DNA of 24,672 nt from Candidatus Helarchaeota archaeon (GTDB lineage: Archaea; Asgardarchaeota; Lokiarchaeia; Helarchaeales; RDOG01). The notes under the pieces are model-generated. The model made no database searches. It worked only from the letters and a program-made list of their open reading frames with translations, and was not told the origin of the DNA. Positions within the stretch are counted from its first letter, which is position 1, and each line of letters starts with the position of its first letter. This document shows, in pieces, positions 20,094-23,612 of the stretch. A program made the translations under genes and the position numbers. The stretch covers positions 1 to 24,672 of the forward strand of contig JALGVI010000060.1 in assembly GCA_029838215.1 (NCBI GenBank). The letters are read 5' to 3'.

Positions 20094-21218
20094 TTAATAG
20101 ATGGCATTTGATAGAAGATGCTGATTTCCAATCTTTACTCGTCTAAGTCCTTCGTCTCTTGCTGCCTTTAGACAACGGTTGGCATGACTTTTGCTTGTTC
20201 TTGGTAGGTCATTGAGATAAAAATGCGGATAGAAACCCAATAATGAATATGGGATGTTGGGATTGATGCCTGCGATCATTCTTGCAATCTCACGGACCTC
20301 ATCTTCATCAACATATCCCGGAATCAATAAAGTTGTTCCGATCAAGAGCGGTATGTCCGGGCACTCCGGGACGCTTTTTGCGAGCAATTTAAAATTTTCA
20401 AGTGTTCGTTTGTTCGAAACACCGCATAAAGCCTTGTGAAGATTTTCATCGTGGCACTTCAAGTCAATTTTTATGCATCCCCCTGAATCCAATGCAATAT
20501 CACGTGCTCGTTTAAGTAATTGCCAAGACATGCCTCCATTCGTTTCCCAACAAACACGCAAGATCTGTTTGTTTTTCCTTGCTTTTTCTACCGCTAATTC
20601 TGAAGTCCTCAGGCTATGTATCATTTGCGGACTTGGATCTCCACCAAAATAACAAATACAGCTCACTTTTTTATGAATCTCCGCAACCAAGTCTTCAGGA
20701 CGAATTAATTTTGGTTTCTTCTTGACTGACATCTCTCGAAAATGCCAGTTTTGACAAAAAAGACAATTGAAGTTACATGCTCCATAAAAAACTGCAAGAT
20801 TAAAATACCCTCGTTCGGGACCTTGCACGTTTGCGTGAGTTGGATAACCACATCCCGTACCTGCGGGACATACCCAGCTTGCGCAACAATTTGTCGGATT
20901 AGGATCAAAATAATAACTCAAAATTCCTTGTTTTTTAGTCCCTGCGTGTCGAACCAAAGAATTCTCCACGTTTTCTACTAGACCGCAAAAACCACGTTCT
21001 CCTTGTTGTATGATGCATTCATTCAAACAAATCTTACATTGGAGACCGTCTATAGATTTTGGAGGTTGAAGTGGAAGATCAAACCGTTTTCTACTCTTTT
21101 CGTGAGTTTTTTTAATTTTTTCATCTAACTCTACCGATTTTTTTCGGATGCAATCCGCGCACGCTTCAAAAACGCGTGTTACTATTGTTTCCTTACCACA
21201 AAAACGACACTTCGTGAT
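20094..21218 (-). CDS. Radical SAM protein (PflA/AmmeMemoRadiSam-like) with a Cys-rich N-terminus; probable ATC start; 374 aa
   Basis: CxxxCxxC (CNFNCLFC), YFGGDP, WETNG, KIDLK, TTLLIPG. The frame is open upstream of track start 21026 through ITKCRFCG...CADC...CKICLNEC, back to a TAA at 21248-21246. Confidence 0.9.
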   Translation of the reverse strand: MTKCRFCGKETIVTRVFEACADCIRKKSVELDEKIKKTHEKSRKRFDLPLQPPKSIDGLQCKICLNECIIQQGERGFCGLVENVENSLVRHAGTKKQGILSYYFDPNPTNCCASWVCPAGTGCGYPTHANVQGPERGYFNLAVFYGACNFNCLFCQNWHFREMSVKKKPKLIRPEDLVAEIHKKVSCICYFGGDPSPQMIHSLRTSELAVEKARKNKQILRVCWETNGGMSWQLLKRARDIALDSGGCIKIDLKCHDENLHKALCGVSNKRTLENFKLLAKSVPECPDIPLLIGTTLLIPGYVDEDEVREIARMIAGINPNIPYSLLGFYPHFYLNDLPRTSKSHANRCLKAARDEGLRRVKIGNQHLLSNAIY

Positions 21219-21223
21219 TTTTT

Positions 21224-21230
21224 CTCCTCC
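21224..21230 (-). promoter_or_regulatory. Shine-Dalgarno GGAGGAG for the radical SAM gene
   Basis: GGAGGAG-AAAAA-ATC on the minus strand. Confidence 0.7.
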
Positions 21231-21266
21231 GTATTGAAGAGCCGATTATTGAATTAATGATCAAAA

Positions 21267-22061
21267 TTAGAGTGGATGTTGAACGCGTTTTGAAATAATT
21301 TTTTCAATATCAAGTATCAAGCCATTTATTTTAATTTCGTCTTTAATGATGGTTTCATGATCTTGACCAATCACCGCCAACAGTGTTTCTTCTTCGATTT
21401 GCTTGATGAGGACGGTGAATCTTTCTCCATATTTAAACTCGATACAAAATCGGTTAATGCCCGTTAATCGTGTTCCATAAATGGCGTTAAATAGTATTTT
21501 TGAGGCGTTTCTATGATTTTCCTGCTTGAATTCATCGATGAGAATGTCGCCCGTAAACGAGAAAATAGCCAGACCTTTAATGTTTTTATTTTTCTTATTA
21601 AATTCAACTAAAAGTCTATGAACTTTTTCTTTTTCATCATCATCGATGTAACGAACATCACCGTGAATGATTTCATCAACGACAGGAATGAACTTGTTGA
21701 AGTATTCAAGCTCTAACCTGCTATCGGATAATTCTTCGGGTGAAAATTCATTTAGGAAAATTGTTTCGATAGTTGTTATCTTGAATAATAAATCAAGGGG
21801 ATTAACCGTAGTTCCTGTTATGGCTGTAAAAACAACATTTTCTTTTTCAGTAAAGATGAATCTCAGGTCTTCCATGTCGATCATTTTCAAATCTGTTTTC
21901 CCAACTTCTCTCGAAAACTTGAGTATTGCCGTGAGAAATCCGATAACCAGAAAAGATTCAACGTTGAAGTCCTGTTTATTTCTGATATAACGAATGAAGG
22001 GACGACCGTTCTTTTTGTTGAAAATAAAAACCGCCTTAACGATCTCGGGTCCTAAGTCCAT
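21267..22061 (-). CDS. Longin-domain + roadblock/LC7-domain fusion protein
   Basis: aa 1-130 fit a longin (AVFIFNKKNGRPF, GFLTAILKFSREV, IDMEDLRFIF, ETIFLNEF, FNKFIPVVDEII). aa ~140-260 fit a roadblock (helix, IKGLAIFSFTGDILI, helix, three strands, helix). ATG 22061 chosen; track start 22064 is TTG. Confidence 0.83.
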   Translation of the reverse strand: MDLGPEIVKAVFIFNKKNGRPFIRYIRNKQDFNVESFLVIGFLTAILKFSREVGKTDLKMIDMEDLRFIFTEKENVVFTAITGTTVNPLDLLFKITTIETIFLNEFSPEELSDSRLELEYFNKFIPVVDEIIHGDVRYIDDDEKEKVHRLLVEFNKKNKNIKGLAIFSFTGDILIDEFKQENHRNASKILFNAIYGTRLTGINRFCIEFKYGERFTVLIKQIEEETLLAVIGQDHETIIKDEIKINGLILDIEKIISKRVQHPL

Positions 22062-22071
22062 CAACAGCTTT

Positions 22072-22080
22072 CCCCTCCTT
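22072..22080 (-). promoter_or_regulatory. Shine-Dalgarno AAGGAGGGG overlapping the GTPase stop codon
   Basis: Minus strand reads GGT TAA GGAGGGG AAAGCTG TTG ATG. Confidence 0.7.
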
Positions 22081-22615
22081 AACCACCTCTACTACTCCTC
22101 ATTAAAAATTCGACCAGTGTTTTAAATGCTTCATCTACATTTTCGCCCGTTGCTGCTGAAGTTTCCGAAAAACACACGATATTTTCGTGTAACTTTGCAA
22201 ACTGCTCCCCATATATTCGTGTTACCAGTCTTTGATCTACAAGGTCAACCTTATTTCCGAGTAGTGCAATTTTTGTTTTTCTTGTCGTGCGTTGTAAGGC
22301 ATCAGTAATCCAAATCGACAGGTTTTCAAAGGTTCGAGGGCGTGTTATGTCATAAACAAGGATTATGCCCTCGGCGTCCCTATAATACAAATGGCGATAA
22401 GAAGTAAACTTACTCTGCCCTGCAATATCCCAAATTATCAATTTAACGCTTTCATTTTCCGTTTCCACGACTTTCGTCATGAACTGCACGCCGATAGTAC
22501 TCTTATAATCCGGTTCAAATGTATTATCGATAAAACGATGAAGCAAACTCGTCTTTCCAACACCGCCATCTCCTAAGAGTAGGATTTTAAAGACGTACTG
22601 GTCGCGTGGTGTCAT
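22079..22615 (-). CDS. Rab-like small GTPase A (178 aa)
   Basis: G1 GDGGVGKTS, G2 STIGVQF, G3 WDIAGQ, YYRDA, LVYDIT, G4 NKVD, G5 ETSA. ATG 22615 follows GAGGAG; the extra 44 N-terminal codons in the track look non-coding. Confidence 0.95.
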   Translation of the reverse strand: MTPRDQYVFKILLLGDGGVGKTSLLHRFIDNTFEPDYKSTIGVQFMTKVVETENESVKLIIWDIAGQSKFTSYRHLYYRDAEGIILVYDITRPRTFENLSIWITDALQRTTRKTKIALLGNKVDLVDQRLVTRIYGEQFAKLHENIVCFSETSAATGENVDEAFKTLVEFLMRSSRGG

Positions 22616-23081
22616 TCGCCTTTCTCCTCGAACTCGAATCGAAATCTGTTTAATTACTTTCAAGTATCCATGTAAAAGATAATCATATAAATGTTTAGCG
22701 GCAAAACTTGCTATAACATGACAGTATGGAAATATATTACTACTCAAATACCATCAATTTGTAAAAACCATTGAATTTTATTTTATCAATTAATGCATGT
22801 TAATTTTAAGTTCATTGAGAAAAGACATTCTAAAAGCCATTTCTGCTCGAAACATTGTTTATATCTCTTTTTTTTATCTTTTTTTGTACTAAATCATTTA
22901 GAAAACTCATGAAAACAAGCTGAAAGAAGTCTTGCTCGAAGAGCTTTCACAAAATTTTTCTTTAGCTTGAAGTTCATCAGAGAGATAAAATTATAAATTT
23001 TGACTTACAATTGACTATAAACAACATACGACTTAAATGCAAAAATTTCTTCGTAAAATTTGATGATTTCGAGGGCTTTGA

Positions 23082-23612
23082 ATGGGCAAAAAGAAAATTT
23101 TCTTAAAAGCCGTTTTGATTGGCGATGGAGGCGTTGGAAAGACTTCCTTGCTTATAAGACATGTTGACAAGAAATTCAGTACTGATTACAAGCCGACTCT
23201 TGGCTTTGATATCAGCCTGAAGACCATAACAGTTCAGGAGAACCAAGTAGAACTCTTGATTTGGGATGTTGCAGGGCAATCCATATTCAAGGAGATTCGG
23301 CAGAGTTACCTTGAAGGGAGTCATTGTGCCTTGCTGGTTTATGACATAACAAATCACGAGACGTTCGATAATACTGGTTTATGGTTAAAAGAACTGAAGA
23401 AATATGCTGGGGAAGTACCCTTTATTTTAGTCGGTAATAAGATCGATCTTCAGGATAAACGCCTCATTTCGGCTGAAAGTGGAGAGGAAAAAGCAAAAGA
23501 ATTAGGTGCTGTTGGATTCTTTGAAACATCTGCTAAAAATGGCGATAAAGTAGATGATGCGTTCGAATTACTAACTAGTAAGAGTGTTCAATTTTTTCAA
23601 TCACAAACATGA
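23082..23612 (+). CDS. Rab-like small GTPase B (176 aa)
   Basis: G1 GDGGVGKTS, G2 PTLGFDI, G3 WDVAGQ, LVYDIT, G4 NKID, G5 ETSAK. Confidence 0.95.
   Translation: MGKKKIFLKAVLIGDGGVGKTSLLIRHVDKKFSTDYKPTLGFDISLKTITVQENQVELLIWDVAGQSIFKEIRQSYLEGSHCALLVYDITNHETFDNTGLWLKELKKYAGEVPFILVGNKIDLQDKRLISAESGEEKAKELGAVGFFETSAKNGDKVDDAFELLTSKSVQFFQSQT

Follow-up and report, generated by a model that had tools for sequence, protein, structure and literature searches.

The DNA analysed here, referred to as the window, is a stretch of 24,672 nucleotides (nt) from Candidatus Helarchaeota archaeon (assembly GCA_029838215.1, contig JALGVI010000060.1, positions 1 to 24,672 of the forward strand). Its minus strand carries the gene of a Rab-like GTPase, here called GTPase A, followed directly by gene X, which encodes a protein predicted to consist of a longin and a roadblock-type domain (protein X). 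The gene of another Rab-like GTPase, GTPase B, lies on the opposite strand and is divergent from that of GTPase A (Table 1). The first-pass annotation had placed a gene of 264 amino acids (aa) 17 nt behind GTPase A, with its ribosome-binding site at the stop codon of the GTPase gene, and this layout was confirmed: a GGAGG box follows directly after the TAA. Read as GGAGGGG, the box begins right behind the TAA, and read as AAGGAGG it shares the last two A of the stop codon. As the spacer leaves no room for a promoter, co-transcription is presumed; GTPase A and X are presumably carried on one transcript, and their translation, judging from the sequence, is probably coupled. An alternative start for X is a TTG at position 22064, one codon upstream, which would give a protein of 265 aa. 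The open frame of GTPase A also reaches 44 codons further upstream, to a TTG at 22747 (22616-22747, minus strand), but this extension is probably untranslated, since the homologs begin at the ATG at 22615, which has a GAGGAG box of its own. The spacer between the divergent GTPase genes is presumed to hold the promoters of both, and an Rfam scan of the whole window, including this spacer, yielded no matches.

Table 1. Features of the GTPase A–X locus, in positions of the window
Feature	Position	Strand	Description
GTPase A gene	22079..22615	minus	ATG 22615 to TAA 22081-22079; 178 aa
GTPase A–X spacer	22062..22078	minus	17 nt; holds the ribosome-binding site GGAGGGG
Gene X (protein X)	21267..22061	minus	ATG 22061 to TAA 21269-21267; 264 aa; putative relative of Mon1/Ccz1/Fuzzy-like LD1+LD2
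Longin domain of X	21663..22040	minus	aa 8-133; predicted (AlphaFold2) ββ-α-βββ-α-α
Roadblock-type domain of X	21294..21641	minus	aa 141-256; predicted (AlphaFold2) α-ββ-α-βββ-α
Spacer between the divergent GTPase genes A and B	22616..23081		466 nt
GTPase B gene	23082..23612	plus	176 aa; divergent from GTPase A

Orthologs of X were sought with a profile in 400 genomes of the phylum. Clear ones (E 1e-32 to 1e-112) were found in five families of two classes, comprising the order of the window itself (Helarchaeota labels) and a second lineage labelled Hodarchaeales, Hodarchaeota or Heimdallarchaeota; outside these lineages, only weaker paralogs of approximately 260 aa were detected. The names of the other lineages follow the inconsistent labels that submitters gave to homologous proteins (Helarchaeota, Hodarchaeota/Hodarchaeales, Heimdallarchaeota, Thorarchaeota). 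Proteins like X are specific to Asgard archaea, and the public copies that were found are all named 'hypothetical protein'. A GTPase of the A clade is encoded directly upstream of X, on the same strand and with gaps of −14 to +17 nt, at 26/26 assessable ortholog loci, which belong to genomes of the Helarchaeales and the Hodarchaeales/Heimdall types. Loss of the pairing in related genomes had been named beforehand as grounds for abandoning the proposal of a linked GTPase and regulator, and the pairing held throughout. No other neighbour of the pair is conserved across the ortholog loci. The neighbouring radical SAM, adenylosuccinate synthetase and ABC ATPase genes were rejected as parts of the module, since they are not conserved together with the pair. 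Phylogenetic trees of GTPases and X proteins agree in their major clades, with the A-type GTPases forming a single clade separate from the B type.

The genome of the window (3.6 Mb) encodes 66 GTPase-like and 34 longin-like open reading frames (ORFs). This genome has 4 full-length paralogs with both domains, X included, and of these only X adjoins a GTPase gene. The longin–roadblock fusion reported in the first-pass annotation is therefore present as a tandem, but it is not unique. With 66 GTPase-like ORFs in 3.6 Mb set against adjacency at every assessable ortholog locus, the linkage of GTPase A and X is more than chance, and we conclude that GTPase A very probably has its cognate partner, and likely its cognate regulator, in X. 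GTPase B neighbours the pair only in the window genome and in one other genome of the same family (G128). A single X gene accompanies the GTPase gene at the window locus and at 24 other ortholog loci. In genome G079 (L036, G079:C134, 639-2807, minus strand), two X paralogs (1443-2234 and 639-1433) come after the gene of an A-type GTPase (2238-2807), with gaps of 3 and 9 nt; the two encoded proteins are 23% identical, and the module may here be heterodimeric, as Mon1 with Ccz1 is. In Candidatus Helarchaeota archaeon LW55_61 (L039, 4437-8117), the gene of a B-type GTPase is divergent to two tandem GTPase–X cassettes. Between these cassettes, identity is 65% for the GTPases but only 39% for the X proteins, so that the regulator diverges faster than the switch.

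Both GTPases of the window are canonical members of the Ras/Rab type (Pfam Ras, E 5.7e-53 for GTPase A and 1.8e-54 for GTPase B). They share 42% identity, and GTPase B falls in a separate clade. The closest solved structures of GTPase A are Rab14, Rab2B, Rab10, Rab4B and Rab1 (E 1e-44 to 1e-41), and a Rab of Thorarchaeota is also among its best solved relatives. The sequence of GTPase A contains the P-loop GDGGVGKT, switch I residues F33, Y37-K38 and T40, the motif DIAGQ with the catalytic glutamine, and the motifs NKVD and ETSA. A prenylation motif behind a hypervariable tail, which is a feature of the Rab family, was not found in the aligned GTPases: their tails are short, and a cysteine among the last 6 residues occurs in 0 of the 16, GTPase A included. 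The GTPases of the Hodarchaeales type (L015-L034) have a conserved basic-hydrophobic tail, K-K-F-L or K-E-F-L, with a net charge of +6 to +10, which might serve as a membrane or partner contact in place of prenylation.

Protein X was modelled with AlphaFold2 from 13 homologs, with a mean predicted local distance difference test score (pLDDT) of 79.7 and a predicted template modelling score (pTM) of 0.57; the N-terminal domain modelled by itself reached a pLDDT of 88.3. Structural comparison with VIA-align aligned 119 residues of the N-terminal domain (residues 2-135) with the longin domain of VAMP7, at a Z score of 15.5 and a root-mean-square deviation (rmsd) of 2.5 Å. The C-terminal domain (approximately residues 137-260) matched the Rag-type C-terminal roadblock domain of the FLCN-Rag-Ragulator structure 8dhb (Z 14.6), Asgard Roadblock3 (Z 14.2) and MglB (Z 13.5), and LAMTOR proteins also match this domain structurally. 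In the model, X thus joins a canonical longin domain at the N terminus to a roadblock-type domain at the C terminus. The same two domains had previously been called from the sequence pattern, and AlphaFold2, Foldseek and the Z scores of 15.5 and 13-14.6 agree with that call. The roadblock-type half has no Pfam match, and in a profile search it gave weak matches with Asgard Roadblock/LC7 proteins and MglB (E 0.18-0.8). The two domains are joined by a linker of about 7 residues (134-140), which AlphaFold2 predicts with low confidence and devoid of secondary structure, and the protein ends 8 residues past the C-terminal helix of the roadblock domain.

The two halves of X differ in conservation, with a mean pairwise identity of 49% in the longin core (aa 8-105) and 27% in the roadblock half. 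The much better conservation of the longin half is expected if the first longin domain (LD1) carries the conserved function. G19, in the β1-β2 hairpin, is invariant and forms part of a G-R-P sequence here and of G-N-T or G-T-T in other orthologs, and every operon-linked ortholog retains R67. By charge, the longin half is acidic and the roadblock half variable and close to neutral. A membrane-binding basic patch, sought through the net charge per domain, gave no consistent signal, and no hydrophobic segments were found in X.

Rab proteins are activated by several families of guanine nucleotide exchange factors (GEFs), of which the tri-longin (TLD, 'HerMon') family comprises the subunits of Mon1-Ccz1 (acting on Rab7/Ypt7), Fuzzy-Inturned (Rab23) and HPS1-HPS4/BLOC-3 (Rab32/38). 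In Pfam, X matches a single family, PF19036 (first longin domain of FUZ/MON1/HPS1), with an E value of 1e-3 for the whole protein and 3e-4 for its N-terminal half. PF19036 is matched by 13/13 close homologs of X (best E 1.4e-6) and appears in the precomputed annotation of 7 of them. Across the 34-member X family, it was found in 31 members and PF19031, the LD1 of INTU/CCZ1/HPS4, in the other 3; no other longin family and no family of longins of GTPase-activating proteins (GAPs) was matched at E ≤ 0.1. In terms of sequence profiles, the LD1 signature is present at the level of the family and below threshold for X alone. In a Foldseek search against the PDB, the 23 best matches of X were all subunits of tri-longin GEFs, namely MON1A, CCZ1, Fuzzy, Inturned and subunits of BLOC-3, with E values of 8e-11 to 1e-5 and both domains aligned. 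Eukaryotic FUZ/MON1/HPS1 clusters of the ESM Atlas were superimposed on 212-214 residues of X with TM scores of 0.59 and 0.56, and residues 8-280 of Fuzzy aligned with 236 residues of X at a Z score of 14.2, but with an rmsd of 11.8 Å.

In Mon1-Ccz1, LD1 is a canonical longin domain (ββαβββαα), LD2 is of the roadblock type (αββαβββα) and LD3 of the lamtor type (PMC8833172). The order of the predicted secondary structure elements of X equals that of LD1 followed by LD2. X thus looks like an LD1+LD2-like relative of GEF subunits of the Mon1/Ccz1/Fuzzy type, as far as can be judged from sequence profiles and models. Its association with a Rab-like GTPase carrying a Y-K motif in switch I may be a further likeness, as substrates of tri-longin exchange factors require a Y-K/R motif at this site (PMC12383261), and F33, Y37 and K38 of GTPase A fall at the corresponding positions. 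There are also clear differences. X measures approximately 260 aa, compared with 400-700 aa for the tri-longin subunits, and all 34 members of its family are 250-273 aa long; when the family profile was used to look for longer or fused forms, which is weak evidence, none appeared at E ≤ 0.01. The known tri-longin GEFs are heterodimers of paralogous subunits, whereas the X locus has a single gene and only G079 has two divergent tandem copies. Furthermore, X belongs to an archaeon without known endomembranes, it shares an operon with its partner, and that partner has no prenylation signal.

Several observations weigh against assigning X to the tri-longin exchange factors. X lacks LD3, as well as the αX-βX linker; in Mon1-Ccz1, the αX helix from the LD1-LD2 linker completes LD3, and the αX-βX linker has been termed defining for the family (PMC8833172). 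We therefore regard X as a relative of the tri-longin proteins and not as a member. The score of X itself on PF19036 (19.6 bits) lies under the curated cut-off of 26.1, and sequence searches of the PDB with X and with the 13-member and 34-member profiles reached no tri-longin GEF chain, giving only sub-significant matches with roadblock, MglB and SRX proteins. The orientation of the two domains in the model is uncertain (pTM 0.57, rmsd of about 12 Å to solved chains). The longin half taken alone is non-discriminating and had to be rejected as a pointer to the LD1 of Mon1/Fuzzy, since the longins of AP sigma/mu and TRAPP tie with it, all at about E 1e-5; the structural specificity consequently rests on the two-domain order, and the specific assignment of X on the Pfam profile together with this order. 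The Y-K/R motif is common, being present in 22 of 62 GTPase-like ORFs of the window genome, and among orthologous GTPase–X pairs Y-K becomes Y-Q in one ortholog of the Helarchaeales type and Y-S in those of the Hodarchaeales type. For both reasons, the motif was rejected as a marker of a tri-longin GEF substrate. Finally, the G-R-P hairpin and the conserved R67 of X recall the longin GAPs, of which a GP motif in the β1-β2 hairpin and an arginine finger are the hallmark, also in some Asgard longins (PMC12290439).

With these points taken into account, we tentatively favour the reading that the genes of GTPase A and X are a conserved operon of two, with X as a two-domain archaeal relative of the tri-longin proteins and the exchange factor of GTPase A, nucleotide exchange being the activity that we infer by homology. 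X would dimerise through its longin domains, and possibly also through its roadblock domains, into a platform; as the operon has one X gene, X is expected to pair with itself, forming a homodimer, and not with a paralog. This platform might bind GTPase A on the conserved acidic face of the longin domain, a step for which the structure prediction below gives weak support, and would by homology remodel switch I, leading to nucleotide release. The roadblock domain would act as a scaffold or localisation module and have no second catalytic activity.

The first-pass annotation had suggested that the regulator binds GTPase A. Prediction of a complex of two X chains with GTPase A passed, though weakly, with a score of 0.48 against 0.00 for the best control; at least 76% of contacts were shared between runs, and the partner had a pLDDT of 78 or more. 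The pass mark was reached by 58/80 solved complexes and by 2/110 mismatched pairs, but passes at scores of 0.60 or below were obtained by only 7 of these 80 solved complexes and by both passing mismatches. The predicted contact, which may be explained by likeness to solved Mon1-Ccz1-Rab complexes, lends weak support to binding.

The conserved linkage is shared evidence for other activities of X. It is unlikely, but deserves attention, that X is a GAP for GTPase A, acting either through an arginine finger, as in the longin GAPs FLCN, NPRL2 and SMCR8, or through MglB-like positioning of the catalytic residues of the GTPase. The longin GAPs FLCN-FNIP, GATOR1 NPRL2-NPRL3 and C9orf72-SMCR8, together with the FLCN/SMCR8-type longins of Asgard archaea (PMC12290439), share with X a β1-β2 glycine and a conserved arginine; G19 is invariant, with a proline at +2 in members of the Helarchaeales type, R67 is retained wherever X is operon-linked, and the likeness of the C-terminal domain to MglB fits the second mode. 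However, the hairpin of X reads G-x-P instead of G-P and is not kept across orthologs, the proline being gone in the Hodarchaeales type. None of the 34 family members matches Pfam families of the Folliculin, NPR2, NPR3 or C9orf72 type, while 31 match the Mon1/Fuzzy LD1, and the C-terminal partner domain of X is a roadblock domain, not a DENN domain. As for MglB-like action, the roadblock domain is the poorly conserved half of X, and GTPase A is Rab-like, not MglA-like. As an equally unlikely alternative, X could serve GTPase A without catalysis, as an effector, adaptor or scaffold that leaves the nucleotide cycle unchanged, in the manner of Ragulator or the C-terminal roadblock domains of Rag proteins. 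Dimers of longin and of roadblock domains are platforms for GTPases in general (PMC10933270), the C-terminal domain resembles both the Rag-type roadblock domain and LAMTOR proteins, and conserved adjacency indicates partnership, not catalysis. On the other hand, the sequence link of X leads to the catalytic LD1 of Rab GEFs, and neither charge nor hydrophobic segments disclosed a membrane-binding feature.

The first-pass annotation had instead combined two activities in one chain, with a longin half acting as GEF and a roadblock half as GAP in a self-contained switch. Both folds are indeed present in X, and MglB has been described with dual GEF/GAP roles (PMC10933270). Yet the tri-longin GEF subunits have the same tandem, and in these LD1 is catalytic and the roadblock-type LD2 is a scaffold and localisation layer, not a GAP (PMC8833172). 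The tandem of X is better read as LD1-LD2, and its roadblock half, with the low identity given above, holds no conserved catalytic-looking residue besides a structural S-F-T-G strand, which makes a dual role improbable. Still less credible, and in our view very improbable, is that GTPase A and X are neighbours without any functional link. Three full-length paralogs of X in the window genome do not lie beside a GTPase gene, and the GTPases of the cultured Lokiarchaeon are generally outside operons with roadblock or longin genes (Tran et al., PMC10933270), but adjacency at every assessable locus, with near-zero spacing and across lineages sharing no other neighbour, and the duplication of the whole cassette as a unit in one genome argue for a functional pair.

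The GTPase A–X pair resembles other prokaryotic systems in part. Like MglA-MglB of Myxococcus and Thermus, it is a prokaryotic pair of adjacent genes for a GTPase and a regulator that contains a roadblock domain, and the C-terminal domain of X shares the roadblock fold with MglB and with archaeal and Asgard Roadblock/LC7 proteins (Z 12.9-14.2). MglB, however, is a single roadblock domain that acts as GAP on an MglA-type GTPase, whereas the roadblock domain of X follows a better conserved longin domain and GTPase A is Rab-like with a DxxGQ motif. Another such system is the Asgard operon described by Liu et al., which encodes a LAMTOR1-like roadblock protein, a Rab-like GTPase and a DENN-domain protein (10.1101/2020.10.19.343400). 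It is likewise a conserved Asgard cluster of a Rab-like GTPase with proteins of the longin/roadblock superfamily and a proposed exchange module. The locus studied here differs in that GTPase A is preceded by the 466-nt spacer and the divergent GTPase B, with no separate roadblock gene, and in that X has no DENN or folliculin match in Pfam; it is a two-gene module with a longin of the Mon1 type.

A further reading, which we consider somewhat unlikely, extends the proposed exchange activity to the origin of the eukaryotic proteins. The X family would be a surviving archaeal precursor form of the tri-longin GEFs, homodimeric and Rab-activating before LD3 and heterodimers arose, and Rab activation would predate the eukaryotes. 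If this were true, the remodelling of switch I on a longin platform for Rab activation would be older than eukaryotes, and in the genome family of the window GTPase B could be an upstream recruiter in a cascade like Rab5 - Mon1-Ccz1 - Rab7. The 'HerMon' study infers a homodimeric precursor of Mon1/Ccz1 and names no prokaryotic relative (PMC7703760). No description of an X-like protein turned up in our literature search on Asgard archaea combined with Mon1/Ccz1, Fuzzy/Inturned, tri-longin or PF19036, subscription journals being outside its coverage.

The detection of this pair is of interest for the study of Asgard GTPase regulation. Rab-like GTPases number in the dozens in Asgard genomes, as do longin and roadblock proteins. 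Tran et al. pointed out that the scarcity of operons makes it hard to match GTPases to regulators (PMC10933270): as Asgard GTPases are generally not in operons, their regulators are not matchable from genome layout. GTPase A and X represent one of few GTPase–regulator matches that can be read from the genome, and X is tied by sequence and architecture to a specific family of eukaryotic Rab exchange factors. Two small soluble proteins suffice to ask whether GTPase regulation on longin platforms existed in archaea and which activity came first, and the pair is of interest because this question becomes directly testable.

Further candidate pairs are present in the window genome, where 7 of the longin-like ORFs have a GTPase ORF no more than 1.5 kb away; examples are C164:33260-35049 (a GTPase, a 140-aa longin and a GTPase) and C13:25329-27870. 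The same genome encodes a protein of 388 aa (G000:C122:19289-20455; L006 1507-2673, plus strand) in which a weakly matching Sybindin-like longin is followed by an Arf-like GTPase and approximately 100 residues. Such longin–Arf-like GTPase fusions are a known architecture of Asgard Rag/Arf-like GTPases (PMC10933270). Downstream of X, the window holds a radical SAM gene (20094-21248, minus strand), whose frame runs on upstream of its first TTG (21026) to a stop at 21248-21246, with a GGAGGAG box near 21224. The extended frame is 383 aa long and contains the Radical_SAM match at residues 153-315.

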